Assembly: GCA_964613895.1 (NCBI GenBank)
Contig: CAZTJP010000001.1
Span: forward strand, 5,386-69,385
DNA from: an uncultured Thiotrichales bacterium
GTDB taxonomy: Bacteria > Pseudomonadota > Gammaproteobacteria > UWMA-0217
Direction: 5' to 3'
DNA: 64,000 bases
Part shown: positions 2,515-58,624 of the stretch, piece by piece
How positions within the stretch are numbered: the stretch's first letter is position 1
How the letters are laid out: each line of letters starts with the position of its first letter
The notes under the pieces: generated by a model
The model's database searches: none
What the model saw: the letters and a program-made list of their open reading frames with translations, nothing else
Told to the model about the DNA's origin: nothing
Program-made: the position numbers and the translations under genes

Positions 2515-5500
2515 ATGAAAGACCTACTCAATCTATTTAAGCAACAGAACGATCAGGGCCATTTCGATGCCATCAAGATCGGCCTCACTTCACCGGAGGT
2601 GATCCGTTCCTGGTCGTATGGTGAAGTCAAGAAGCCGGAAACCATCAACTATCGAACGTTCAAGCCGGAACGCGACGGGCTTTTTTGTGCCAAGATCTTT
2701 GGTCCGGTCAAGGATTATGAATGCCTTTGCGGCAAGTACAAACGCCTCAAGCATCGCGGTGTCGTATGTGAGAAATGCGGTGTCGAAGTCACCCAGACCA
2801 AGGTGCGCCGGGAGCGCATGGGGCATATCGAACTGGCCAGCCCGGTGGCGCACGTCTGGTTCCTCAAGTCGCTGCCGTCACGGATTGGTTTGTTGCTCGA
2901 CATGGCGCTCAAGGAGATCGAGAGCGTACTGTATTTCGAGGCGTTTCTGGTCGTCGATCCGGGCCTGACCACGCTGGAACGGGGGCAGTTGCTGTCCGAC
3001 GAGGCCTATCTGGAGGCGCTCGAGGAGCATGGTGATGAATTCGAGGCCAAGATGGGCGCCGAGGCGATTCTCGACATGCTCAAGAGCATCGATCTGCGGG
3101 CGGAGTCGGAGAAACTGCGCACCGAGATGAGCGAGACCAAATCGGAAACCAAGCTCAAGCGGATCGCCAAGCGTCTGAAGCTGGTCGAATCTTTCCTCGA
3201 ATCCGGCAACAAGCCGGAGTGGATGATCATGTCCGTGCTGCCGATCCTTCCGCCGGATATTCGTCCGCTGGTGCCGCTCGACGGTGGACGGTTCGCCACC
3301 TCCGATCTCAACGATCTGTATCGGCGCGTCATCAACCGCAATAACCGTCTCAAGCGGCTGCTCGAGCTGAATGCGCCGGATATCATCGTTCGCAACGAAA
3401 AGCGGATGCTGCAGGAGGCGGTCGATGCCTTGCTCGACAACGGTCGTCGCGGCCGGGCGATCACCGGCACCAACAAGCGTCCGCTCAAATCCCTGTCAGA
3501 CATGATCAAGGGCAAGCAGGGGCGTTTCCGTCAGAACCTGCTCGGTAAGCGCGTCGATTATTCCGGGCGCTCTGTCATCGTGGTCGGGCCGACACTGAAA
3601 CTGCATCAATGTGGTTTGCCCAAGAAAATGGCGCTCGAGCTGTTCAAGCCGTTTCTTTTCGGGCGACTCAATCGTCTCGGCCTGGCGACCACGATCAAGT
3701 CTGCCAAGAAGCTTGTGGAGCAGGAGATTCCGCAGGTTTGGGATATTCTCGAAGAAGTCATCCGCGAACATCCGGTGATGCTGAACCGTGCGCCGACGCT
3801 GCACCGGCTCGGTATCCAGGCCTTCGAACCCGTACTGGTGGAAGGCAAGGCGATTCGCTTGCACCCGTTGGTTTGCGCAGCTTTCAATGCGGACTTCGAT
3901 GGCGACCAGATGGCGGTGCATGTGCCGTTGTCCATCGAGGCGCAGCTCGAAGCCCGTACGTTGATGATGTCATCCAACAACGTTCTGTCACCCGCCAATG
4001 GCGAGCCGATTATCGTCCCGTCGCAGGACGTGGTGCTGGGGCTGTATTACATGACCCGCGAAAGGGTCAATGCCCAGGGTGAAGGTATGGTGTTCGCCGA
4101 TGTCGATGAAGCCAACCGGGCTTACGAGAGCCGCCAGGCATCCTTGCATGCGCGGGTGAAAGTGCGCATTACCGAGAATGTCGTCGATAACAAGGGCAAT
4201 TGGGAAAAAACCACCTCGATCAAGGACACCACCGTCGGGCGCGCGATTCTTTCGATGATTTTGCCCGAAGGTCTGCCATTCTCACTGGTGGATCAGGAAC
4301 TCAACAAAAAGGCGATTTCCAACCTCATCAATGCCTGCTATCGACGGGTGGGGCTCAAGGCCACGGTAATCTTTGCCGACCAGCTGATGTACTGGGGTTA
4401 TCGCTTTGCGACGCGCGCCGGTATTTCCTTTGCGGCAGAGGATATGGTCATTCCCGATGAGAAGGCCGGGATTCTCGAGGATGCGGAGAAACAGGTGCTC
4501 GAGATCGAATCCCAGTACGCTTCGGGGTTGGTGACTTCCGGAGAGCGTTATAACAAGGTGGTCGATATCTGGACCACGGCCAACGACGCAATCGCCAAGG
4601 CGATGATGGACAAGCTGGGGCATGAGGAGGTCGAAGATGCCGAAGGTAATGTGGTCGAGCAGCCTTCGTTCAACTCGATTTTCATGATGGCCGATTCCGG
4701 CGCTCGGGGGTCGCGGGCGCAAATTCGTCAGCTGGCCGGTATGCGCGGACTGATGGCCAAGCCGGATGGCTCGATCATCGAAACACCGATCACGGCCAAC
4801 TTCCGCGAGGGGCTGAACGTGATGGAGTACTTTATCTCCACTCATGGCGCCCGCAAGGGGTTGGCCGATACGGCATTGAAAACTGCCAACTCGGGATATC
4901 TGACCCGGCGGCTGGTCGATGTGTCTCAGGATCTGGTCATCACCGAAGAGGATTGCGGTACATCCGAAGGACTGATCATGAAACCGATCATCGAAGGTGG
5001 TGATGTGGTTGAACCGCTCAGTGAGCGGGTTCTGGGCAGAACCGTTGCCCGTGATGTCATCAAGCCGGGTGGACGCAAGGTGCTGATTCCCGCCGGGACA
5101 TTCCTTGACGAGACATGGATAGACAGTCTCGACGAACTCGGAGTGGATGAGATCGTCGTGCGCTCGGCGATCACCTGTGAAACCCGTTATGGGGTGTGTC
5201 GAAAATGTTATGGGCGTGACCTCGCCCGGGGTGGGTTGGTCAATGAAGGCGAGGCGGTCGGCGTCATGGCTGCGCAGTCGATTGGTGAGCCAGGTACCCA
5301 GTTGACCATGCGAACGTTCCATATTGGTGGTGCCGCGAGTGGTTCGGCGGCGATCAACTCGATCGAGGTCCACACCAACGGGACTGTGCGTTTGCACAAT
5401 ATCAAGACGGTGACCAACAGCAGCGGCAAGCTGGTGGCGGTATCCCGCTCGGGTGAACTGAGTATCATCGATCAGCACAACCGCGAACGGGAACGGTACA

Positions 5501-6762
5501 AGATCCCGTATGGCGCCATCATTTCTGCCAAGGATGGCGACAAGGTTGAGGTAGGTCAGGAGATTGCCAACTGGGATCCGCATACCCATCCGATCGTTTC
5601 GGAAGTGGAAGGCTGGGTGAAGTTTTACGACTTCCTCGAAGGTGTCACCATCAACAAGCATGTGGATGAAATCACCGGGTTGAGTTCGACCGTGGTGACG
5701 GATCCGAAGTCCCGTTCCGGCGCGGGCAAGGATTTGCGTCCGATGGTCAAGTTGGTCGACGAGAATGGTGATGATGTCACATTGGCCGATACCGATATTC
5801 CGGCGAACTATGTATTGCCGGGCGGTGCTATCGTCAATCTCGAGGATGGAGCGAAGGTCGAGGTTGGCGATGTCATTGCACGGATTCCGCAGGAATCCAC
5901 CAAGGCGCGGGATATCACTGGTGGTCTGCCGCGGGTTGCCGATCTGTTCGAGGCTCGCAAACCCAAGGAGCCGGCAATCATGGCAGAGGTCACCGGTACC
6001 ATTTCGTTCGGCAAGGAAACCAAGGGCAAGCAGCGTCTTGTGATCACCGATGAAAAGGGTGAAACACACGAGTCGCTGATTCCCAAGTGGCGCCATATCA
6101 ATGTGTTCGAGGGCGAGCGGGTCGAGAAGGGTGAGATCATCGCCGATGGCGAGCCTTCGGCGCATGACATCTTGAGGCTCAAAGGCGTCGAGGCATTGGC
6201 CAACTATCTCGTTCAGGAGATTCAGGATGTCTACCGCTTGCAGGGCGTGAAGATCAATGACAAGCACATCGAGGTGATCATTCGCCAGATGCTGCGAAAG
6301 GTCGAGATCACCGATCCCGGTGAAACACGGTTGCTCAAGGGGGAACACGTCGACCGCTCGCGTGTACTCGAAGAAAACGATCGGTGCCGGGAAACCGGTA
6401 AGGTGCCGGCAAAGTTCAACGAAATGCTGTTGGGTATCACCAAGGCTTCGTTGGTGACCGAATCGTTCATTTCGGCAGCTTCCTTCCAGGAGACGACACG
6501 GGTGCTGACCGAAGCCTCCGTTCGAGGCGCGCGTGATGATTTGCGAGGCTTGAAGGAAAACGTCATCGTCGGTCGACTCATCCCCGCAGGAACGGGTCTG
6601 GCGCATCACAAGGAGCAGCGTCGCAAGCAACAGAAAGATATGCCGACGTTCAGTGATCCAACCCCATCTTCCGAACCAGCGCCGGAGACCGAGGCGGCAA
6701 CGGCAGGTTCCGAGGCTTCAGTCGAGGCGGAAGGGTCTTCACCCGCACCGTCCGAAGGCTGA
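2515..6762 (+). CDS. rpoC: DNA-directed RNA polymerase beta' subunit
   Basis: 1415 aa; N-terminus [11 protein letters not shown]...[32 protein letters not shown], zinc-binding CxxC motifs, [12 protein letters not shown] catalytic motif. Confidence 0.97.
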
Positions 6763-7906: not shown

Positions 7907-9997
7907 GTGGCCCGCACGACACCACTAGAGCGTTATCGCAACATCGGTATCATGGCGCATATCGATGCTGGGAAAACGACGACGACCGAGCGGGTTCTGT
8001 TCTATACCGGCATATCCCACAAGATCGGCGAGGTTCATGATGGCGCGGCCGTCATGGACTGGATGGAACAGGAGCAGGAACGGGGGATCACGATCACCTC
8101 CGCGGCAACGACCTGTTTCTGGAGCGGTATGGATCGGCAGTTCGATCAGCACCGCATCAATATCATCGACACGCCGGGTCACGTTGATTTCACGATCGAG
8201 GTCGAGCGTTCGCTGAGGGTGCTCGATGGAGCTTGCGCCGTCTTTTGCGCAGTCGGTGGTGTGGAGCCACAGTCGGAAACGGTCTGGCGTCAAGCAGATC
8301 GCTATGGAGTGCCCCGAATTGCATTCGTCAACAAGATGGATCGGGCAGGCGCGGATTTTTTGCGCGTCGTTGGTCAGATCAAGGATCGGCTGGGCGCCAA
8401 TCCAGTCGTCATGCAGATTCCCATCGGCGCCGAGGATGGTTTCGAGGGTGTCGTCGATCTGATTCGAATGCAGGCCATCTACTGGAATGAGGCGGATATG
8501 GGGGCCACCTATGAGGCGCGCGATATTCCGCCGGAGCTGGTTGATCAGTGTGAGTCCTATCGGGAGGCCTTGCTCGAAACGGTCGCCGAGTCCGATGAGG
8601 CGCTAATGGATGCCTATCTCGAAGAGGGGCATCTGGACGAAGACCAGATTGTACGCGGACTGCGCAAGCTGACGTTGGCGAATGAAGCCGTGCCGTGCTT
8701 GTGTGGCTCCGCGTTCAAGAACAAAGGCGTTCAGGCGATGCTGGATGCAGTGGTGAATTATTTGCCTTCACCGCTGGATGTGCCTGCCATCGTCGGTGAG
8801 TTGCCCGATGGTTCTGAAGGAGAGCGGCATGCATCCGATGATGAGCCTTTCTCGGCCTTGGCGTTCAAGATTGCCACGGATCCGTTCGTGGGTAGTCTGA
8901 CGTTCTTTCGTGTCTATTCCGGCGTGCTCAATTCGGGCGATGCGGTATACAACTCGGTTTCGGGCAAGAAAGAACGGATCGGACGCATCTTGCAGATGCA
9001 TGCAAATTCACGTGAGGAGATCAAAGAGGTTCGTGCTGGTGATATCGCGGCTGCGGTTGGTCTCAAGAGCGTCACGACGGGTGACACGCTGTGTGATGTC
9101 AATCATGTGATCACGCTTGAGCGCATGGATTTTCCCGAGCCGGTGATTTCGGTCGCAGTGGAACCCAAGACCAAGGTGGATCAGGAGAAGATGGGGATCG
9201 CATTGGGCAAACTGGCCCAGGAAGATCCCTCTTTTCGGGTGCATACCGACGACGAGTCGGGGCAGACGATCATCTCGGGGATGGGTGAGTTGCATCTGGA
9301 GATCATCGTCGATCGGATGAAGCGTGAATTTGGTGTCGAGGCCAATGTCGGAGCGCCACAGGTTGCCTATCGGGAGACGATTCGCAAGACGGTCGAAGCC
9401 GAAGGGAAATTCGTGCGGCAGACCGGTGGCCGAGGTCAGTACGGTCATGTCTGGCTGAAGCTGGAGCCCTTGCCTCAAGGGGAAGGCTTCGAGTTCGTCA
9501 ATGCCATCGTCGGTGGCGTGGTGCCCAAGGAATATATCGGCGCTGTCGAAAAAGGTGTCGAAGAACAGATGGGGGCTGGTGTCGTGGCGGGTTTTCCTGT
9601 CATCGATGTCAAGGTCACCTTGTTCGATGGTTCGTACCATGATGTTGACTCCAGCGAAATGGCGTTTAAAATCGCCGGCTCCATGGGCTTCAGGAATGGT
9701 GCGCTCCAGGCGGACCCGGTACTTCTGGAGCCGGTCATGAAGGTTGAGGTCGTCACTCCGGAGGAGTACATGGGCGACGTCATGGGCGACCTGAACCGTC
9801 GCCGGGGATTGGTGAGCGGCATGGATGAAGCGCCGGGTGGAAAGATCATCCGCGCCGAAGTGCCGCTGGCCGAGATGTTCGGGTATGCGACTGACCTGCG
9901 TTCCACGACACAGGGCCGGGCAACGTATTCGATGGAGTTCTCCAAATACGCCGAGGCGCCCAGCAGTGTGGCCGCGGAGTTCAAGAGAGCGTCCTGA
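7907..9997 (+). CDS. fusA: elongation factor G (canonical str-operon copy)
   Basis: GTG start at 7907 giving [35 protein letters not shown] (the ORF track starts 8 codons earlier at 7883). Purine-rich AAGAGG lies 10 nt upstream. Contains the G' insert segment [26 protein letters not shown]. Confidence 0.95.
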
Positions 9998-44320: not shown

Positions 44321-47924
<3,604 letters not shown>

Positions 47925-47944
47925 TCCAGTTGCTTTGCAGGTCA

Positions 47945-48095
47945 CGGCGCCCAGCCCGAATTTCTCACAAGATCACGGCTGCGGCCTCCCAATGCTGCTC
48001 GACGTCGTGTCGACTACGCCTGCGCGGCCCTCGGTCGCGCACGCCAGTCATCACACCACCTTGAGCGGCCTCGCTACACGACCCTGTTAGAAAAG
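47945..48095. repeat. intergenic repeat family member A (degenerate copy)
   Basis: Core AGCCCGAATTTCTCACAAGATCACGGCTGCGGCCTCCCAATGC (47953-47995) is ~85% identical to 58289-58332; the right-arm remnant CGGCCTCGCTACACGACCCTGTTAGAAAAG corresponds to GCGGCTCGCTACGCAACTGTGAGAAAT of copy C. Confidence 0.5.
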
Positions 48096-48131
48096 AAAAC
48101 GGCGGAACAAACTGGTTCCGCCGTTGTGGTA
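48091..48131. terminator. bidirectional intrinsic terminator (ACGGCGGAAC-aaactg-GTTCCGCCGT)
   Basis: Perfect 10-bp stem. On the + strand it follows the SIMPL gene and precedes TTGTGGT. On the - strand it is followed by UUUUCUUUUC (strong U-tract). Confidence 0.55.
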
Positions 48132-48735
48132 GCGCTTTGTAAGCCCAACGCCTGTTTAATCTCCGGATTACGATAATTCCCTGAAACTATCGAACGCATC
48201 CTCGGAATCTTGTGACAGAGCGATCTTTGCTGCTGCCTCAGGCGCTTCCAGCCTCGTTGTTGGCTGTCAGATGCTGTTATGCAATGCCCGTGCCGTTTTT
48301 ATCTATTTCTCTATATCATGATGTTTTTATACAGGTTTTGGCGTGACTTCCTGATCACTGAAAGGCTTGGCGGGGCAGCAATCACAACCAGACTGTAAAG
48401 TGTGCTTTACAGCAGGATTACCGGTTTCCGAGAAAATAAAATTTAATCCCGTTAAACCAACAACTTATACGTTTCCGTCTCTCTGTCATCAAAGCCTTAC
48501 ACAAACTACCTCCAGCGCAGGGTCAAGCGCGGGGTCAGGCTTGCGTTATTGCGTTTTGGGATAACAAATGTGCGGTGAAAGTGGTACTCGTTGTCAAGTC
48601 CTAGTAGACTTCGCGCCCTGTATTTTGTAAGGCTGCCGTGCATGCTGGGCCAATTGTTGTCTAACTAGTTGGTTTTTCAGTGATTATTTGGATGGCGGCC
48701 GTAGCCGATAACCTGTACTGACACCGAGATGAAAA

Positions 48736-50814
48736 ATGACTGACCTTTCGCACTATCGCAATATTGGCATATTTGCGCATGTTGATGCCGGCAAGACGAC
48801 GACAACCGAGCGGATTCTGAATCTGACAGGAAAGACCCACAAGATCGGTGAGGTACATGATGGTGAGGCAACCACGGACTTCATGGAACAGGAGCGCGAG
48901 CGCGGAATCACGATCCAGTCGGCTGCGACGACCTGTTTCTGGAAGGATCATCGGCTGAATATCATCGATACTCCGGGACACGTGGATTTCACGATCGAGG
49001 TGTATCGGTCGCTGAAAGTGCTGGATGGTGGCGTAGGCGTTTTCTGTGGCTCTGGCGGTGTGGAACCTCAGTCGGAAACGAACTGGCGCTATGCCAACGA
49101 GTCCGAGGTGGCACGGATCATTCTGGTCAACAAGCTGGATCGGATGGGCGCGGATTTTTACCGTGTGGTCGAGCAGATCAAGAATGTACTGGGGGCCAAT
49201 CCCCTGGTCATGGTGCTGCCGATCGGCATCGAGGACGATTTCGTTGGTGTGGTCGATTTGCTGACCCGCAAGGCCTGGGTTTGGGACGATTCCGGTGATC
49301 CGGCCAAGTATGAGTTGCAAGATGTGCCTGCCGACATGGTGGACAAGGTCGAGGAGTATCGCGAGCAGTTGATCGAAACGGCGATCGAGCAGGATGATGA
49401 CTTGATGGAGGCATACCTGGAGGGTGAGGAGCCGTCTCTGGAGGACATCAAGCGCTGCATTCGCAAGGGCACGATTGCGCTCGACTTTTTCCCGACCTAT
49501 TGCGGTTCGGCGTTCAAGAACAAGGGCATCCAACTGGTGCTGGATGCAGTTGTCGATTATCTGCCGAGTCCGACGGAGGTCGATCCCCAGCCCGAGGTGG
49601 ACCTGGAAGGCAATGAGACGGGCAACTATGCCGTGGTCGATCCGGACAAGCCGGTTCGGGCACTGGCGTTCAAGATCATGGACGACCGTTTTGGCGCATT
49701 GACGTTCACCCGCGTCTATTCGGGGACGATCAAGAAAGGGGATACTCTGCTCAATACCTACACCGGCAAGACGGAGCGGATCGGTCGGATCGTGGAGATG
49801 CACGCGGATTCGCGCGAAGAGCTGGATTCCTGTCAGGCTGGTGACATCGTAGCCTTTGTGGGCCTGAAGAATACCCAGACCGGCCATACGCTGGCTGATC
49901 CAGACAATCCCGCAACGCTGGAGCCAATGGTTTTCCCTGATCCGGTGATTTCGATTGCGATCAAGCCCAAGGACAAGGGTGGTTCCGAGAAGATGGGTAT
50001 CGCGCTGTCCAAGATGATGCAGGAAGATCCCTCCTTCCGGGTCGAAACGGATGAGGATTCGGGCGAGACGATCATCAAGGGCATGGGTGAGCTGCATCTG
50101 GATATCAAGGTCGATATCCTCAAGCGTACCCACGGGGTCGAGGTTGAGGTTGGCAAGCCGCAGGTGGCGTATCGTGAAACGATCACCCAGCGGGTGGAAG
50201 ACAGCTATACCCACAAGAAGCAGACAGGCGGTTCCGGTCAGTTCGCAAAGATCGACTATGTGATCGAGCCGGGCGAGAAGAACAGCGGTTTCCAGTTCGA
50301 ATCGGTAGTGACCGGCGGCAATGTCCCCCGCGAGTTCTGGCCGGCGGTGGAAAAAGGGTTCGCCACCAGCATGGAGGAAGGCGTGCTGGCGGGCTTCCCG
50401 TTGCTGGACGTGAAGGTGACATTGGTCGATGGTGGCTTCCACCCGGTGGACTCCTCCGCAGTGGCCTACGAGATTGCAGCCAAGGCGGCCTATCGTCAGT
50501 CGGTTCCGAAAGCGGGGCCGCAGTTGTTGGAGCCGATCATGAAAGTGGATGTGTTCACGCCGGAAGAACACGTCGGCGATGTGATCGGTGATCTGAACCG
50601 TCGTCGCGGCATGGTGCAGGGTCAGGAATCGGGCCCGACCGGGGTGCGCATCAAGGCAGAAGCGCCGTTGAGCGAAATGTTCGGTTATATCGGAACCCTG
50701 CGAACCATGACATCCGGGCGTGGCCAGTTTTCGATGGAGTTCGACCATTACGCGCCTTGCCCCAACAATGTCGCTGAAGAGGTGATCAAGGAGATCAACG
50801 AAGCCAAGGGGTAG
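48736..50814 (+). CDS. fusA: elongation factor G paralog (EF-G2 type)
   Basis: 692 aa; [86 protein letters not shown]; lacks the SGMxxQxxxH segment present in the str-operon copy; all five EF-G domains recognisable. Confidence 0.9.
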
Positions 50815-50900
50815 CCCGGATTCCGCCAGGTCGCTACTGCGACCGCCCAATGTGGCGCGCTGACTGATGTTCACTCGGTCGAGTGCCGGATCACCCGTTC
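50812..50900. repeat. intergenic repeat family member B
   Basis: Starts at the fusA2 stop codon. AGCCCGGATTCCGCC...CTACTGCGACCGCCCAATGTGGCGCGCTGACTG...CCGGATCACCCGTTC matches copy C (…GACTGCGGCCACCCAACGCGGCGCGCTGACTG…CCGGATCCAGTTCAC). Confidence 0.45.
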
Positions 50901-51085
50901 GGTCCGTGCGTTTCCACGCTTCTGCGTGGGAACGCGAACCCTATTGTTGGTGAGCCTCGGATTACCGCGCAGGAATCCCGGGGCCATGCAACCCACGCAC
51001 CCACGCCGCTGCCATGCTGGCGCTGATCGATTCTGAACTGTTCCCATCGCCACAATGCCGGTTTGATCCTTGGTAAGATAGGGCG

Positions 51086-51898
51086 ATGCCGACTATCGAA
51101 ATCACTCAACTCGCCATCTACCCCGTCAAGTCGATGCGCGGAATGGCGTTGCAGTCGTCGCAGCTGGACGCGATGGGGCTACGCTGGGATCGACGCTGGA
51201 TGCTGGTGGATGCCCAGGGCCGTTTTCTGACCGGCCGGCAGCATCCCGAGTTATTGACGATCCAGCCAAGGCTTTCGGAGCAGGGCGCATTATCGCTCGA
51301 ATTCCCGGACGGCAAAGTGCTGGCGGTGCCGTCGCCGGATGCGGCCGCCGGGCGAGTACCAGTCACGGTGTGGAATGATACCGTCATGGCATCCCCGGTC
51401 GGCGGCACCTGCGATGACGTACTCAGTGCGTGGCTGGGCGAACCTTGCCGGTTGGTGTTCATCGAAGATGATGAGGTCAGACAGGTCGATCCGGCGTATG
51501 CGCACGAAGGAGATCGCACGGGGTTTTCGGATGGTTTTCCGTTGTTACTGATCTCGGAGGCTTCGCTGGCGGATCTCAACAGCCGTCTGCCGGAAGCATT
51601 GCCGATGAGCCGTTTCCGGCCCAATCTGGTGGTTTCTGGCACGGAACCGTTTGCCGAGGACGACTGGCAGACATTCGAGACCTGTGGCGTGAAGTTTTCC
51701 GTGGTCAAACCTTGTTCCCGCTGCGTGATGACGACGGTGGATGCCGAGCGTGGCATCCGCGCGGGCAATGAGCCGCTGGCGACGCTGATGACCTACCGTC
51801 GCCAGGGCAACAAGGTGATGTTTGGTCAGAATGTGATCCATCGCGGTCGCGGTGTATTGCGGGTAGGCGCCCCGGTGGAGGTTCTCCCCGCCGACTGA
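51086..51898 (+). CDS. MOSC domain-containing protein (YcbX-like)
   Basis: MPTIEITQLAIYPVKSMRGMALQSSQLDAMGLRWDRRWMLVD (MOSC N-terminal beta-barrel) and a C-terminal MOSC domain with a conserved Cys (KPCSRCVMTTVD). Confidence 0.8.
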   Translation: MPTIEITQLAIYPVKSMRGMALQSSQLDAMGLRWDRRWMLVDAQGRFLTGRQHPELLTIQPRLSEQGALSLEFPDGKVLAVPSPDAAAGRVPVTVWNDTVMASPVGGTCDDVLSAWLGEPCRLVFIEDDEVRQVDPAYAHEGDRTGFSDGFPLLLISEASLADLNSRLPEALPMSRFRPNLVVSGTEPFAEDDWQTFETCGVKFSVVKPCSRCVMTTVDAERGIRAGNEPLATLMTYRRQGNKVMFGQNVIHRGRGVLRVGAPVEVLPAD

Positions 51899-52025
51899 TT
51901 TGTGACGGACTGCCCGCAACTGTCTTTTCTGCTACTATCCGCCGCTCGAGATCTGTTTGTCCGGGAACGCTCGCGGGCGGAGCGATTTTCCTGCCCGGAC
52001 GCATGCTACCTATTTGAGACCGACT

Positions 52026-54689
52026 ATGAATGCCATCATGCAACCACAAGACGTTGATTCGCAGGAAACCCAGGAATGGATCGAGGCGCTGGAAGCCGTT
52101 ATCGAGCATGAAGGCATCGAACGCGCGCATTTTCTGCTGGAGCAACTGATCGATCATGCACGCAGGTCGGGCGCCAATCTGCCGTATTCGGCCAACACGG
52201 CGTATGTGAATACGATTCCGACCCATCTTGAAGCACCATTGCCGGGTGACCGCGCCATCGAACAGCGGATCAAATCCTGGGTGCGCTGGAATGCGGCGGC
52301 GATGGTGGTGCGTGCCAACCGCAAGAGCGGCGAATTGGGTGGACATATCGCTTCATTCGCGTCGGCAGCGACGCTGTACGATGTGGGTTTCAACCATTTC
52401 TGGCGTGCGCCAACGCCGGAGCATGGTGGTGACATGGTGTTTTTCCAGGGCCATTCCGCGCCCGGCATGTATGCGCGCGCTTTTCTGGAAGGGCGGCTGA
52501 CCGAGGAGGATCTGGACAAGTTCCGCCAAGAGGTGGATGGTGGTGGGTTGTCATCCTATCCACACCCGTGGTTGATGCCGGATTTCTGGCAGTTTCCGAC
52601 GGTCTCGATGGGCTTGGGTCCGATCATGTCGATCTATCAGGCGCGCTTCATGAAATACATGCAGCACCGTGGTCTGGCGCATACCGAGCAGCGCAAGGTA
52701 TGGGCCTTCATCGGCGATGGCGAGGTCGATGAGCCAGAGACGCTGGGCGCCATTTCGCTGGCGGCGCGCGAAAAGCTGGACAATCTGATCTGGGTGGTCA
52801 ATTGCAACTTGCAGCGGCTCGATGGGCCAGTACGTGGCAATGGCAAGATCATTCAGGAACTGGAAGCGATCTTCCGCGGTGTCGGCTGGAACGTCATCAA
52901 GGTGATCTGGGGCTCGTACTGGGATCCGTTGCTGGCGATGGATCACGATGGCCTGCTGCGTCAACGGATGATGGAAGCAGTCGATGGCGATTACCAGAAC
53001 TACAAGTCCAAGGATGGCGGCTATGTTCGCGAGCATTTCTTCGGCAAGTATCCCGAACTGAAAGCCATGGTCGCCAAAATGTCGGATCGGGACATCTGGC
53101 GGCTCAACCGCGGTGGACACGATCCGAACAAGGTGTATGCCGCCTACCATGCGGCGGTCAACCACCAGGGCCAGCCGACGGTGATCCTGGCCAAGACGGT
53201 CAAGGGCTATGGCATGGGCGCGGCTGGCGAGGCGATGATGGGCGCGCACCAGAAGAAAAAGATGGACGAGGATTCGATGGTCGCGTTCAAGAACCGCTTC
53301 AACATTCCGCTTTCGGACGAGGATGCGGCTGCGGCCAAGTACTACAAGCCCCCCGAAGACAGTCCCGAGATTCAGTACATGCGGGAGCGTCGCAAGGCGC
53401 TGGGTGGCCCCATTCCGGCTCGCCGGCATCAGGCGGCGCCGTTGGACATCCCCGATCTGGCTGCTTTCGAGCCGCTGCTCAAAGGCACGGGTGAGCGTGA
53501 AATGTCCACCACGATGGCATTCGTCCGGCTGCTGACGCTGTTGACGCGCGACAAGAAGCTCGGTCGCCATATCGTGCCGATCGTGCCCGACGAAGCGCGT
53601 ACCTTTGGCATGGAAGGCATGTTCCGCCAGTTGGGGATCTATTCATCCGTCGGACAGCTCTATACCCCCCAGGATCAGGACCAGGTGATGTTCTACAAGG
53701 AGGATCTGTCGGGGCAGATTCTCGAGGAAGGCATCAATGAAGCGGGCGCGATGTGTTCCTGGATTTCGGCGGCCACGTCCTACAGCACGCATGGCGTGGC
53801 CATGATCCCGTTCTACATCTACTACTCGATGTTCGGGTTTCAGCGTGTTGGCGATCTCGCCTGGGCGGCGGGCGACCAGCGCGCCCGGGGGTTCCTGCTG
53901 GGCGGCACGGCCGGCCGGACCACGCTGGCGGGTGAGGGGTTGCAGCATCAGGACGGTCATCATCATGTGTTGGCCAGCACCATTCCCAACTGCATCAGCT
54001 ATGACCCCACCTTTGCCTACGAGCTGGCGGTGATCATTCAGGATGGCATGCGCCGCATGTATCACGATATGGAAGATGTGTTCTATTACATCTCCGTCAT
54101 GAACGAGAACTATGCCCATCCCGCCATGCCGAAGGGCGTGGAGCAAGGCATCCTCAAAGGCATCTATCTGTTCCGCAAGGGTGGGCGCAAGAAAAAGCGG
54201 GTGCAATTGCTGGGTTCCGGCACCATTTTCCGCGAAGCGATGGCCGCAGCCGACTTGCTGGCGCAGGATTGGGGCGTGGACGCCGATCTGTGGAGCGTGA
54301 CCAGTTTCAATGAACTGGCCCGGGACGGGCGAGATTGTGAACGCTGGAATCTGTTGCACCCGGAAGAGAAGCCGCGCGTTCCCTATGTGGCACAGGTGCT
54401 CGAAGGCGCGAAGGGGCCATTCATTGCCGCGACCGACTACATCAAGAGTTATGCCGACCAGATTCGCCCCTGGGTGCCCGGACGCTATACGGTGCTGGGC
54501 ACGGATGGGTTCGGGCGTTCCGATACGCGAGCGCAGTTGCGCAAGCATTTCGAGGTCGATCGCCACTATATCGTCGTGGCCGCGCTTCGGGCGCTGGCGG
54601 AAGAAGGTGCGGTCAAGCCGGCTGATGTCAGCAAAGCGATCGCACAGTACGGCATCGATGTGAACAAACCCAATCCGATCAAGGCCTGA
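52026..54689 (+). CDS. aceE: pyruvate dehydrogenase E1 component
   Basis: [49 protein letters not shown]... aligns with AceE N-termini; the ORF track starts 23 codons earlier. Confidence 0.9.
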
Positions 54690-54699
54690 GGAGTACGCG

Positions 54700-56031
54700 A
54701 TGGCAGTCAAGGAAATCGTTGTTCCGGATATTGGCGATTTTGGCGAGGTGGAGATCATCGAAGTGCTGGTGGCGCCCGGTGACCGGATCGACGCGGAGGA
54801 TTCGCTGGTCACGCTCGAGTCGGACAAGGCCTCGATGGAGATTCCTTCCACCGATTCCGGCGTGATCAAGGAACTCAAGGTGGGTGTGGGTGACAAGGTC
54901 TCCCAGGGCAGCCCGTTGCTGGTGCTGGAAGTCAGTGATGCCGCCAACGATGCATCCGCCGCCGAGCAATCCGAGCGCGCAGCCCAAGCCCCGTCGCCGG
55001 CACAGAGCGAGACCCAGCCGGCGCCCGAGCCTCCCGGCACGACGTCTGAGCCTCCGCCTGGCCCTGCATCACCGGCCGCAGCGGCGGCGCCAGCCGCCAA
55101 GCCATCTCCGACGGCCATGATCGATGAGGTGCGTTTCGAGAAAGCCTATGCCAGTCCCTCGGTGCGACGTTTCGCCCGCGAGCTGGGTGTCGATCTTGGT
55201 CAGGTCGAAGGCAGCGGCCGCAAGGGACGGATTCTCAAGGAGGATGTCAAACAGTTCGTCAAACGGGCGCTCACCCAGGGAGCTGGCGGCGGTCTGGGCG
55301 TGGCGCCCATGCCGGAGGTCGATTTCAGCCAGTGGGGCGAGATCGAAACGAAAAAACTCACTCGCATCAACCAGTTGACTGGCCAGTTCCTGCACCGAAA
55401 CTGGGTGACCATTCCCCATGTCACGCAGTTCGACGAGGCGGATATCACCGATCTGGAAGCCTTCCGCCGTTCGATGGTCGAGGAGTACAAGGAGCGCGGC
55501 GTCAAGATTACCTTGCTGTCGTTTCTCATCAAGGCGGTTGTCTCCGCGCTCAAGGAATTGCCCCGTTTCAACGCCTCGCTGGAGCCGGGGGGCGAAACGC
55601 TGGTGCTGAAGAAGTATTTCCACATCGGGGTGGCCGTGGATACGGCCGATGGACTGGTGGTACCGGTGGTTCGGGACGCGGATCGCAAGAGCCTGGTCGA
55701 GATTGCTGCCGAGCTGGGTGAGATCAGCGCCAAGGCGCGCGAGAAAAAACTCAAGCCCGCCGACATGCAGGGCGGTTGTTTCACCATCTCCAGTCTCGGT
55801 GGTATCGGCGGTACCCAGTTCACGCCCATCGTCAATGCGCCAGAGGTGGCGATTCTGGGCGTATCGCGCGCCAAGATGACTCCCGTCTGGAACGGCAACG
55901 AGTTTGAACCCCGGCTGGTATTGCCGCTGTCGCTGTCCTACGATCATCGGGTGATCGATGGCGCTGACGGTGCACGCTTCACCAGCCTGCTCAGCCGTTT
56001 GCTCTCGGATACCCGCCGCTTGTTGCTGTAG
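54700..56031 (+). CDS. aceF: dihydrolipoyllysine-residue acetyltransferase (PDH E2), single lipoyl domain
   Basis: Lipoyl domain [45 protein letters not shown]; Ala/Pro linker; E3-binding; catalytic domain ending ...[17 protein letters not shown]. Confidence 0.9.
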
Positions 56032-56063
56032 CCGGGCGGGTGAGGATTTGTTGAGGATCGAAC

Positions 56064-57821
56064 ATGAGTGAAACGGTTGAGGTCAAGGTTCCGGATATCG
56101 GCGATTTCGGCAAGGTCGAGGTCATCGAGGTACTGGTGTCGCCCGGTGATACGGTGCAGGCCGAGGACTCGCTGATCACGCTGGAGTCGGACAAGGCGTC
56201 GATGGAGATCCCCAGCCCGCAGTCGGGCGTGGTGCAGGAAGTCCTGGTCAAGGTCGGCGACAAGGTTTCCGAGGGGGACCCTATTCTCAGGCTGACACTG
56301 GCCGATGGTGACACAGCCACTGCCGAGACATCGCCGCCCGCCCCGACAGTGGATACGCCCCCCTCCGAGGCTGCTCCCGCTCCGGCGGCGCCTGCTGTGG
56401 GTCAGGCCGACCGACGCGCCGAAGTGGTGGTGCTGGGCGCCGGGCCGGGGGGGTATACGGCGGCTTTTCGCGCCGCGGATCTCGGCAAGCAGGTGGTTCT
56501 GATCGAGCGTTACCCGAGTCTTGGCGGTGTCTGTCTCAATGTCGGCTGCATTCCCTCCAAGGCGCTGTTGCATGTTGCCGAGGTGATTACCGAGGCCCAG
56601 GAATTCAGCGCCGTCGGCGTGGATTTCGGTACGCCGACGATCGATATCGACAAGCTGCGCACTCACAAGGAAAAGGTGATCGGTCAGCTGACCGGTGGAC
56701 TCGCGCAACTTGCCCGGCAGCGCAAGGTCGAGGTCGTGCAGGGTGTTGGCCGCTTCACCTCGGCCAACCGTATCGCGGTGCAGGGCGCGGATGGCGCCGA
56801 AACGACGATCGATTTCGAGCACTGCATCATCGCCGCGGGTTCGAGCGTGGTGAAACCGGGCTTCATCCCCTGGGACGATCCTCGTGTGCTGGATTCGACG
56901 GGCGCGCTGGCGCTGGAATCCATCCCCGAGCGGTTACTGGTGGTGGGTGGCGGCATCATCGGCATGGAGATGGCCTCGGTCTATCACGCGCTCGGTTCGA
57001 AGATCACCGTGGTGGAACTGTCCGATGGGCTGATGCCGGGCGCGGACCGGGATCTGGTGCGGTTGTTTCAGAAATCGATCAAGTCCCGCTACGAGAATAT
57101 CTTCACGGGTACGAAGGTCACCGCGATCACGCCATCGGACGCGGGTCTCGTCTGTGAATTCGAAGGCGGCAAGGCGCCGCAACAGGATACCTTCGACAAG
57201 GTGCTGGTGGCGATCGGTCGCGCACCCAACGGCGCGCTGATCGATGCCGACAAGGCTGGCGTGGCGGTCGATGAACGCGGTTTCATCGCGGTGGACAAGC
57301 AGCAACGCACCAATGTGCCGCATATCTTCGCCATTGGCGATATCGTCGGTCAGCCGATGCTGGCGCACAAGGCGACTCATGAGGGCAAGGTGGCCGCCGA
57401 AGTGATCGCCGGCAAGAAATCATTTTTCGACGCCCGCACCATCCCGTCGGTGGCCTACACCGACCCCGAGATCGCCTGGTGTGGTCTCACCGAAGAAGCT
57501 GCAAAAGCGCAGGGCGTGGCTTACGAGAAGGGGGCTTTCCCCTGGGCCGCCAGTGGCCGGGCGCTCAGCATGGGCGCGTCCAACGGACTGACCAAGGTCT
57601 TGTTCGACAAGGAAACCCATCGCGTCATCGGCGCGGGCATCGTCGGCAAGAATGCCGGCGAGCTGATTGCCGAAGCAGTGTTGGCGCTGGAAATGGGCGC
57701 GGATATGACCGATCTGGCGCTCACGATTCATCCGCACCCCACTTTGTCGGAGACGGTGAACTTTGCGGCGGAAATGGCCGAGGGCACCATCACCGATCTG
57801 TATGTACCAAAGAAGAAATAA
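56064..57821 (+). CDS. lpd: dihydrolipoyl dehydrogenase (E3) with N-terminal lipoyl domain
   Basis: 585 aa. The first ~80 aa duplicate the aceF lipoyl domain ([45 protein letters not shown]), followed by an A/P linker, then FAD-binding VVLGAGPGGYTAAFRAADLG and redox-active GGVCLNVGCIPSK. Confidence 0.92.
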   Translation: MSETVEVKVPDIGDFGKVEVIEVLVSPGDTVQAEDSLITLESDKASMEIPSPQSGVVQEVLVKVGDKVSEGDPILRLTLADGDTATAETSPPAPTVDTPPSEAAPAPAAPAVGQADRRAEVVVLGAGPGGYTAAFRAADLGKQVVLIERYPSLGGVCLNVGCIPSKALLHVAEVITEAQEFSAVGVDFGTPTIDIDKLRTHKEKVIGQLTGGLAQLARQRKVEVVQGVGRFTSANRIAVQGADGAETTIDFEHCIIAAGSSVVKPGFIPWDDPRVLDSTGALALESIPERLLVVGGGIIGMEMASVYHALGSKITVVELSDGLMPGADRDLVRLFQKSIKSRYENIFTGTKVTAITPSDAGLVCEFEGGKAPQQDTFDKVLVAIGRAPNGALIDADKAGVAVDERGFIAVDKQQRTNVPHIFAIGDIVGQPMLAHKATHEGKVAAEVIAGKKSFFDARTIPSVAYTDPEIAWCGLTEEAAKAQGVAYEKGAFPWAASGRALSMGASNGLTKVLFDKETHRVIGAGIVGKNAGELIAEAVLALEMGADMTDLALTIHPHPTLSETVNFAAEMAEGTITDLYVPKKK

Positions 57822-57823
57822 AA

Positions 57824-57874
57824 AGAAGCGCCACGCCCTGAAAAAGACTGTGAAAAAGAGGCGTGGCGCTTCTG
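57824..57874. terminator. bidirectional terminator-like inverted repeat (AGAAGCGCCACGCC ... GGCGTGGCGCTTCT)
   Basis: 14-bp perfect arms with a 23-nt A-rich loop between convergent lpd (+) and 57910-58239 (-); on the minus strand it is followed by a T-run. Confidence 0.5.
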
Positions 57875-57909
57875 GTTGATGATGGGCTGAGCCTGGTTTG
57901 GAGTCCGAC

Positions 57910-58239
57910 TCAGTCGTCCTGCAGACAATCGCGCAGGTCGTCGAGCGTATAGAACTCGGAACCACGCATGAAACCGGCATGAATGGTGTCCAGCAGTTCG
58001 AGTGCTCTGCCCTGGTCATCCCAGCTTTTCACCCACTCGATTGGCAGGTTGTCGAGGTTATGGGCAAGCGCAATGCTGCCGTCATCATTGATGGCAAGAT
58101 GCGTTTCCCCATCAGCCCCGTTTTTGAATGCCGGCAGAAATCCGAAACACAGATTTCCGAAGCTGACTCCCGGCATTTTGTCGAACAGCTTGCGCTGCTC
58201 CAGAACTTCAGGCGTTCCGATCAACATGGATTCCTCCAC
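57910..58239 (-). CDS. hypothetical protein (109 aa, acidic, no recognised domain)
   Basis: ORF with a dedicated terminator downstream and repeat C upstream; MEESMLIGTPEVLEQRKLFDKMPGVSFGNLCFGFLPAFKNGADGETHLAINDDG... Confidence 0.5.
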   Translation of the reverse strand: MEESMLIGTPEVLEQRKLFDKMPGVSFGNLCFGFLPAFKNGADGETHLAINDDGSIALAHNLDNLPIEWVKSWDDQGRALELLDTIHAGFMRGSEFYTLDDLRDCLQDD

Positions 58240-58288
58240 AGGTGTTGTTGTTCTTGTTGTATCCCTGTGCCATCCATTGGCCCGAGCA

Positions 58289-58380
58289 AGCCCGAATTTC
58301 TCACAGAGTCACGACTGCGGCCACCCAACGCGGCGCGCTGACTGGCGCGGCTCGCTACGCAACTGTGAGAAATCCGGGCT
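58289..58380. repeat. intergenic repeat family member C, intact copy bounded by 18-bp terminal inverted repeats
   Basis: AGCCCGAATTTCTCACAG (58289-58306) and its near-perfect reverse complement CTGTGAGAAATCCGGGCT (58363-58380) flank a 56-bp GC-rich core. Homologous to copies at 47945-48095 and 50812-50900. Confidence 0.55.
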
Positions 58381-58624
58381 ATCCGGATCCAGTTCACGCC
58401 AGGAATCGTGGATTCGCGGGCGTGATGCCATGATCGGTAAGGATCATTTACGTTAGGATGCTATCGACCCGGCAGGCGGATTCTTTAGGGCGGAAAGCGG
58501 CGTGACCGGACGCGTAGCGAATTTTTGGAGACGCATCGGGGTTTGCTGTCAGTGTTCAGGCAGGATTCAGTCGTCGCTTGTAGGCTGCTGCCGGCCGGAT
58601 TGTCATAGGCAACAACGCCCGAGT

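Follow-up and report, generated by a model that had tools for sequence, protein, structure and literature searches.

A family of CTAG-targeting miniature elements with IS1380-type ends in an uncultured Thiotrichales bacterium

The 64,000-nucleotide stretch of DNA considered here (positions 5,386 to 69,385 of contig CAZTJP010000001.1, GenBank assembly GCA_964613895.1, from an uncultured Thiotrichales bacterium; hereafter the window) carries three GC-rich, palindromic sequences between its genes, one of which begins at the very stop codon of the gene for a second elongation factor G (EF-G2, fusA2). What are these sequences, and how did they come to lie where they do? An earlier note, made from the letters alone, had described them as dispersed intergenic repeats resembling either repetitive extragenic palindromes (REPs) or transposable elements of the miniature inverted-repeat type (MITEs). 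Our analyses indicate that the three repeats are, very probably, worn copies of a 176-bp non-coding MITE that has the ends of the IS1380 family of insertion sequences (ISs), uses CTAG as its target, and was most likely mobilised in trans. This reading accounts for all three odd intergenic sequences, including the one fused to the EF-G2 stop codon.

A dispersed family of 176-bp elements

The kinship of the three window copies withstands controls for chance. With up to three mismatches allowed, the 18-mer AGCCCGAATTTCTCACAG matches three times in the window (47953+, 58289+, and 58363-), against 0.06 matches in shuffles, and a 31-nt core occurs twice where 0.00 occurrences are expected. An unbiased repeat search pairs 47953-48001 with 58289-58337, in copies 1 and 3, at 84% identity over 49 nt, and all three regions can be aligned with one another. 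Moreover, a sensitive BLAST search with the genome-wide consensus returns exactly these three places in the 64 kb. The three related copies proposed in the earlier note thus hold up at much the same coordinates, as does their location between genes.

When metagenomes were scanned with a pattern for the window subfamily, all matches came from one Joint Genome Institute metagenome (Ga0256841 / 3300026534), where the elements lie on 89 contigs with a total length of 553 kb. Two of these contigs, L127 and L194 in our numbering, correspond to the window locus at 99.7-99.8% identity, so Ga0256841 holds the same organism, which is also found in two metagenome-assembled genomes (MAGs) at NCBI (GCA_054023355.1 and GCA_054024235.1) and in one assembly of the European Nucleotide Archive (ENA). 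Homologues of its EF-G2 are 89-91% identical in Chromatiaceae and Sedimenticola MAGs and 87-89% identical in Solemya symbionts; as judged by this comparison, the organism belongs among the uncultured sulfur-oxidiser-like Gammaproteobacteria.

The 89 contigs contain 143 repeat blocks, which establishes the genome-wide dispersal that had been suspected, and among these are 63 unique full-length copies, each of 176 bp, with a mean identity of 95.2% to the consensus and of 92.7% to one another. Copy number and anatomy can be read directly from these copies. The unit is bounded by 15-nt terminal inverted repeats, CCCGNATTTCTCACA ... TGTGAGAAATNCGGG, with the element proper beginning CCCGGATTTCTCACA, and CCCGNATTTCTCACA stands at both ends of the 63 full-length copies as well as of copy 3 in the window. 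A MITE-like family with terminal inverted repeats, as the earlier note had supposed, is therefore present. The copy count and consensus that the note called for give well over 100 places in the same organism and a length of 176 bp; the 92-bp copy (58289-58380), which had been offered as the best-preserved form, proves instead to be an internal-deletion derivative of the intact unit. With copies that are ~95% identical to their consensus, the family has expanded recently in this genome.

The flanks of the full-length copies carry the mark of insertion. Identical 4-bp sequences border 45 of the 61 copies that could be evaluated (74%), where chance would give 1 in 256, and the proposed check for target-site duplications accordingly came out positive for most full-length copies of the organism. 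The duplicated sequence is CTAG in 33 cases, CTAA in 5, TTAA in 4, and CTAC, CTAT, and CTGG in 1 each, and the left flank is enriched in G at positions -5 and -6. Tandem dimers of the element, with a 180-nt period and a single shared CTAG or TTAA, were observed at L129:53-265, L141:6301-6513, L158:2507-2719, and L143 ~5790-5950. Because insertion re-creates CTAG at both ends of the element, such dimers are allowed, and they are consistent with a new insertion into a target re-created by an earlier one.

Ends, transposases, and targets

To what kind of element do these ends belong? The 16-mer GCCCGRATTTCTCACA, taken from the inverted repeat, was searched for in one genome per species, 596 Gb in all, and was found at 118 loci in a wide range of phyla, with many matches at contig ends. 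The hosts include Acidobacteriota, Planctomycetota, Gemmatimonadota, Cyanobacteria, Chlamydiota, Verrucomicrobiota, Alpha- and Gammaproteobacteria, and a Frankia. Chance matches of a 16-mer in 596 Gb are a concern, which is countered by the finding that 99 of 126 matches are preceded by CTA or TTA, completing CTAG or TTAG, a prefix that the pattern did not require. A search for inverted partners yielded two size classes, one of ~30 short elements (61-303 bp) and one of 22 long elements (1631-1840 bp). All 22 long elements have strong tblastn matches to the transposase of the IS on contig L116, and the two transposases that were scanned match both Pfam DDE_Tnp_1_4 (E=4e-137 and 9e-155) and NCBIfam transpos_IS1380 (374 and 408 bits, with a cut-off of 180). 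Identical 4-bp flanks, mostly CTAG or TTAG and in one case ATAG, surround 19 of the 22, and pairs of the TCAG/TCAG type occur among the short elements. In addition, two plasmid elements annotated with an "IS1380 family transposase," on pKF715A of P. putida KF715 and pCB82_1 of Bradyrhizobium CB82, read CCCGCATTT[C/T]TCACAG...TGTGAGAAATGCGGG between one CTAG and another. Both the identity of the MITE ends with those of one large group of IS1380-family ISs and the family of the transposases within the full-length elements are direct observations, and they make one end sequence and a CTAG target common to IS1380-type elements across many phyla.

The smallest derivatives seen consist of little beyond the two inverted repeats: one of 61 bp in a Tahibacter MAG (L063:4900-4961), with the flanks CCAG/TTAG, and one of ~48 bp (L149:2260-2310). 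Such examples hint at how small a part of the sequence survives in the most reduced derivatives.

These ends bear on the REP-like nature of the repeats that the earlier note had raised, together with a RAYT/IS200-like partner, that is, on REPs or bacterial interspersed mosaic elements (BIMEs) spread by a REP-associated tyrosine transposase (RAYT) of the IS200/IS605-like Y1 type. REP units are 20-40 nt long, have neither terminal inverted repeats nor target duplications, and are associated with Y1 transposases. The present copies resemble them in being GC-rich, palindromic, intergenic, and numerous. In contrast, the unit here is 176 bp long and has 15-nt terminal inverted repeats identical to IS1380 ends, 74% of the full-length copies have 4-bp duplications, which REPs do not generate, and the full-length relatives encode DDE_Tnp_1_4 rather than Y1 transposases. 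The ten open reading frames (ORFs) adjoining the copies have unrelated Pfam domains or none, a result that covers those ten, since no systematic Y1/RAYT scan of all window ORFs was made. On this evidence, spread by a RAYT is extremely unlikely, and this part of the earlier description does not survive.

The same comparison raises the question of whether each window copy could be the remnant of a full-length IS1380 element that decayed where it sat. The window copies do carry independent internal deletions, and solo ends and the 48-61-bp mini-derivatives do exist. Against this, the 63 full-length copies share one 176-bp length and one interior at ~95% identity, each with its own duplication; the interior is not that of any full-length IS seen, and independent deletions would not converge on a single 176-bp product. 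Decay in situ is therefore very improbable as an origin of the family.

The target sequence addresses a further alternative, namely that the family is of the IS630/Tc1-mariner type, with a TA duplication and a repeat starting GCCCGG. It is true that TA precedes almost every match. However, the paired flanks are 4 bp long and include TCAG, ATAG, CTAA, TTAA, and CTAC, and the full-length elements, at 1.63-1.84 kb, encode transposases of the IS1380 family and not of the IS630 family. The paired 4-bp flanks and the transposase family refute the IS630/mariner assignment, which retains virtually no probability.

The choice of target also bears on where the MITE is found. CTAG occurs 14 times in the window, whereas base composition predicts 242 occurrences and a Markov model 31. 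Counts of TTAG, CTAA, and TTAA are low in the window as well, and those of GATC and CATG are not. Since CTAG is so rare in the genome, usable sites are few and lie mostly outside coding sequence, and since it contains a TAG stop on both strands, insertions frequently fall precisely at gene 3′ ends; a 4-bp CTAG target thus accounts for the start of copy 2 immediately behind the TAG stop of the EF-G2 gene. Insertions do favour gene 3′ ends: according to a crude ORF caller, the flanking genes are convergent for 28 of the 88 blocks that could be placed, tandem for 51, and divergent for 9, and the stop codon of a flanking ORF falls within the duplication in 23 cases. A depleted target that contains stop codons would provide a simple rule for landing sites.

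Taken together, these observations suggest the following course of events. An IS1380-family DDE transposase, supplied in trans, would recognise the 15-nt ends and insert the element at a 4-bp YTAR target, most often CTAG and then CTAA, TTAG, or TTAA, which would be duplicated on each side. Selection and the rarity of the target inside genes would leave copies at the 3′ ends of genes, and later internal deletions (copies 1 and 3) or decay (copy 2) would cripple the copies of the window. We infer that mobilisation occurred in trans and that a source of the transposase is, or formerly was, in this genome. The elements are non-coding and shorter than 500 bp, with terminal inverted repeats, target duplications, and many dispersed copies, as MITEs are, and they share with the autonomous IS1380-family elements ends that start CC and 4-bp direct repeats, as derivatives of that family do; only the cognate transposase is missing from the sample of the genome.

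Several points weigh against this course of events, the crudeness of the ORF calling among them. Searches by tblastn detected no gene for an IS1380-family transposase either in the 64 kb of the window or among the contigs, 553 kb in all, which were chosen for their MITEs and do not amount to a whole genome. Similarity between the MITE and the ends of full-length ISs extends over only ~30-60 nt (in one case 119 nt at 65%), and no direct parent was identified among the full-length ISs compared. A pair of filled and empty alleles was not recovered with the joined flanks of 58 copies, for which only tandem-copy artefacts matched, so the case for mobility rests on the duplications, the number of copies, and their similarity. 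Finally, a perfect target duplication is lacking in all three window copies, whose flanks each differ from CTAG by one mismatch. A solo 15-nt end beside a glycosyltransferase-like ORF (L198:1110) was considered as a candidate IS end and rejected.

The window copies and their surroundings

The boundaries of the three copies, as compared with the 176-bp consensus, are given in Table 1. The first bases of the element proper are CCC and the last are GGG, and the outer AG and CT that the earlier note had included are part of the decayed 4-bp target duplication. The copies differ in what is left of their ends: copy 3 has two full inverted repeats of 15 nt, both intact (58291-58305 and 58364-58378), copy 1 has one full repeat and one that lacks its last ~6 nt, at the tip, and copy 2 has a single degraded repeat. 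Relative to the consensus, copies 1 and 3 have been crippled by internal deletions and copy 2 by decay, and copy 2 is the oldest of the three.

Table 1. Positions of the three MITE copies and their flanking tetranucleotides in the window
Feature	Position	Strand	Description
Copy 1, left flank CCAG	47951..47954		One mismatch versus CTAG; probably a decayed target-site duplication
MITE copy 1, 139 bp	47955..48093	+	Left inverted repeat CCCGAATTTCTCACA; consensus 1-41 + 71-170
Copy 2, left-edge tetranucleotide GTAG	50811..50814	+	50812-50814 is the TAG stop of the EF-G2 gene
MITE copy 2	50815..50881	+	Left 67 nt recognisable; consensus 1-69, 84% identity; left repeat degraded to CCCGGATTCCGCCA
Possible fully decayed right part of copy 2	50882..50985	+	Basis: spacer length versus relative
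Copy 3, left flank CAAG	58287..58290		One mismatch versus CTAG
MITE copy 3, 88 bp	58291..58378	+	Consensus 1-57 + 137-176; positions 58-136 deleted
Copy 3, right flank CTAT	58379..58382		One mismatch versus CTAG

The genes around the copies are those that the earlier note had described. Copy 1 follows ligA and a SIMPL-domain gene, whose stop lies 30 nt upstream of the start of the copy. Its internal deletion leaves 29 consensus positions unaligned and measures 32 nt when contigs are compared; the deletion point, 47995-47996, is flanked by two TGC triplets. This deletion is polymorphic among assemblies of the same organism, being present in the window and in contigs L194, L212, L213, and L001 and absent from L127 (56-230), L215 (51-220), and L214. 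The last of these (ENA ERZ27262647 k141_49401) has a further peculiarity: over 1940-2400, compared with 47900-48130 of the window, it joins copy 1 and fusA2 to other upstream genes, with leuA, a uracil-DNA glycosylase gene, and an acetyltransferase gene in place of ligA and the SIMPL gene, and the switch lies inside the MITE. The SIMPL contig of that ENA assembly (L001) stops just after the repeat. The change of neighbourhood bears on the recombination hotspot that the earlier note had raised as a possible role, and it is compatible with recombination between copies or with mis-assembly at the repeat. A dispersed MITE explains assembly breaks and neighbourhood switches at such points, and its recognition should be useful for the binning and scaffolding of these MAGs.

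The truncated right end of copy 1 is abutted by a strong hairpin with a T tract, resembling an intrinsic terminator, on the minus strand (48098-48125), upstream of which no gene on that strand is apparent. Beyond this hairpin comes a non-coding stretch of 606 nt with 46.7% GC (48130-48735), which precedes fusA2 and may represent a small RNA or a long leader; a segment of 51 nt within it (~48577-48625) also stands upstream of fusA2 in a relative, L218, with 90% conservation. Within 48754-50753, the second EF-G gene is 70-76% identical in DNA, over several segments, to the canonical fusA of the ribosomal protein cluster (7934-9951), and the largest direct "repeats" of the window are due to this similarity.

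The EF-G2 gene ends exactly at copy 2, downstream of which lie a MOSC gene and then aceE-aceF-lpd. The spacer between fusA2 and the MOSC gene is 271 nt long in the window, versus 99 nt, with a terminator and without the element, in L218, whose EF-G2 is 96% identical; there, a TGA stop occupies the position equivalent to the window TAG, and the flanks have diverged. In the sequence 3′ of 50881, where the right half of copy 2 would lie, local alignment to the consensus was no better than for shuffles. Copy 3 lies between lpd and an mlaF-like ABC ATPase gene, which is part of an mlaF/mlaE-like pair. The "orphan" ORF of 109 aa that the minus strand contains between lpd and this copy (57910-58239) has no Pfam match, and if it is not a real gene, then copy 3 sits in a plain tandem spacer running from lpd to the mlaF-like gene.

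A conserved hairpin and comparison with known elements

The family is recognisable over its whole 176-bp length in other bacteria, at 62-73% identity in MAGs of Acidobacteriota, Methylococcales, and Chromatiaceae, and a profile search also picks it up in Phycisphaerae MAGs, a range that takes in Acidobacteriota, Planctomycetota, and other Gammaproteobacteria. Its sequence is nearly palindromic and forms a single long hairpin of ~80 bp; folding thus upholds the strong GC-rich hairpin noticed at the outset. The consensus reaches -133 kcal/mol (z = -14.7) on the minus strand of the window versus -106.5 kcal/mol on the plus strand. Covariation was examined across phyla in an alignment of 14 sequences, in which 31 of the 47 predicted pairs show compensatory, two-sided changes that keep the pair, and pairing holds in 92% of cells, versus 73.7% in shuffles (none of 500 of which reached the observed value) and 35-45% with slid partners. 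On one strand, moreover, there are 66-67 G·U cells versus 8-17 A·C cells (over 24 and 8 pair columns, respectively), even when the pairs are those predicted on the opposite strand; these counts are RNAalifold-based. When each element was aligned to its own reverse complement, a strand-neutral test, the bias was weaker, ~56:32 over independent lineages, so the strand-biased excess of G·U wobble pairs is treated as suggestive only. With DNA folding parameters, the two strands of the window copies differ only slightly.

Could the repeats then be functional RNA elements in the first place and not selfish DNA, either genes for a structured non-coding RNA or a cis-regulatory hairpin of the host, with their spread a secondary matter? 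The very low folding energy, the maintenance of the hairpin across phyla by compensatory changes, and the strand bias of the wobble pairs are all in keeping with such a function. Transposon-type ends and target duplications are not. In addition, orientation relative to the flanking genes is random (13 versus 12), which argues against an orientation-dependent host function and bears on the transcript-stabilising role that the earlier note had considered possible, and many copies are truncated in differing ways. A promoter scan found no sigma-70-like promoter in the window copies, and Rfam 15 gave no matches at gathering score for the whole window, with permissive scans at chance level only. One permissive match, of a full copy (L171:2079-2290) to the plant family MIR918, scored 49.7 bits against a gathering score of 268 and reflects a generic long hairpin, not homology. 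We consider an RNA gene or host regulatory hairpin improbable, and a mobile element with a strong fold remains the preferred reading.

For a MITE, the extent of the palindrome nonetheless calls for an explanation. The ends of full-length ISs share only their 15-20-nt inverted repeats, so binding of the transposase alone does not explain a palindrome of 80 bp. Selection may maintain the hairpin, acting on RNA or on single-stranded DNA, or a process that homogenises the two arms may do so. That one strand of the element must fold, as RNA or as single-stranded DNA, in the life cycle of the element itself is a tentative and rather unlikely proposal; examples of what it may involve are a strand-specific step in IS1380-type transposition, insertion coupled to replication, or an RNA acting on the transposase. 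If this is true, then it would be a property not described for IS1380- or piggyBac-type elements, and the long conserved hairpin with its strand-biased wobble pairs offers a testable hint that single-strand structure matters. The arms of the MITE resemble the transposase-distal end of some ISs. It was also observed that the ISs on L116, L074, L113, L017, L026, L090, and others have a non-coding region of 174-290 nt 3′ of the transposase gene, a region whose sense strand is rich in C and poor in G and whose antisense strand folds more stably by 20-40 kcal/mol.

How does the family compare with what is known? In the IS1380 family, which includes IS1380, IS1247, ISPme1, and ISEcp1, the ends begin CC and the direct repeats are 4-5 bp. 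The MITE agrees in its 15-nt terminal sequence and its CTAG flanks with the plasmid elements and the 22 long elements from MAGs. In contrast to these, the window elements are 67-139 bp long (176 bp when intact) and have no transposase gene, and outside ~30-60 nt at the ends the MITE and the full-length ISs are dissimilar. For IS1247, a 5-bp repeat is given (PMC3281130), and ISEcp1 and ISPme1 mobilise adjacent DNA in a one-ended manner (PMC9330008), the activity for which they are known, rather than for miniature derivatives. The present elements thus add a MITE family to an IS family otherwise known mainly for gene capture of the ISEcp1 type.

Among bacterial MITEs such as Correia/NEMIS, ERIC, RUP, Nezha, and Chunjie, the family is in familiar company, being short, non-coding, and multicopy, with IS-like terminal inverted repeats. 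Target duplications, stable hairpins, and a preference for gene 3′ ends are likewise on record for bacterial MITEs (PMC3184786, PMC10969869; for pneumococcal repeats, PMC3049150). Nezha and Chunjie, with direct repeats of 10 bp and 9 bp, respectively (PMC6042816), versus the 4-bp CTAG found here, are separate families with different parents, which rules them out as prior descriptions of this one. The family differs from other MITEs in that it is GC-rich and in that its internal sequence is recognisable across at least three phyla. IS1380 goes unmentioned in two reviews of prokaryotic MITEs (PMC3184786, PMC10969869). In the searchable literature, neither an IS1380-derived MITE nor a relevant link between IS1380 and CTAG is described, and the end sequence appears in no paper; ISfinder and TnPedia were outside the scope of that search, so prior registration is possible. 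Thus, the window contains three crippled copies of an ordinary class of element, a recently amplified, CTAG-targeting MITE family with IS1380-type ends.

The eukaryotic piggyBac transposons, finally, offer a parallel for the choice of target. They duplicate 4 bp of a palindromic, TA-centred target, TTAA, and their ends start CCC. The present family is similar in both respects, with a CTAG target followed by CTAA, TTAG, or TTAA, and with CCCG ends, and unlike piggyBac in its preferred tetranucleotide and in the domain of its hosts. These likenesses would point to a mechanistic resemblance between the two, and IS1380 transposases have been used as the prokaryotic outgroup of piggyBac (PMC10813416).

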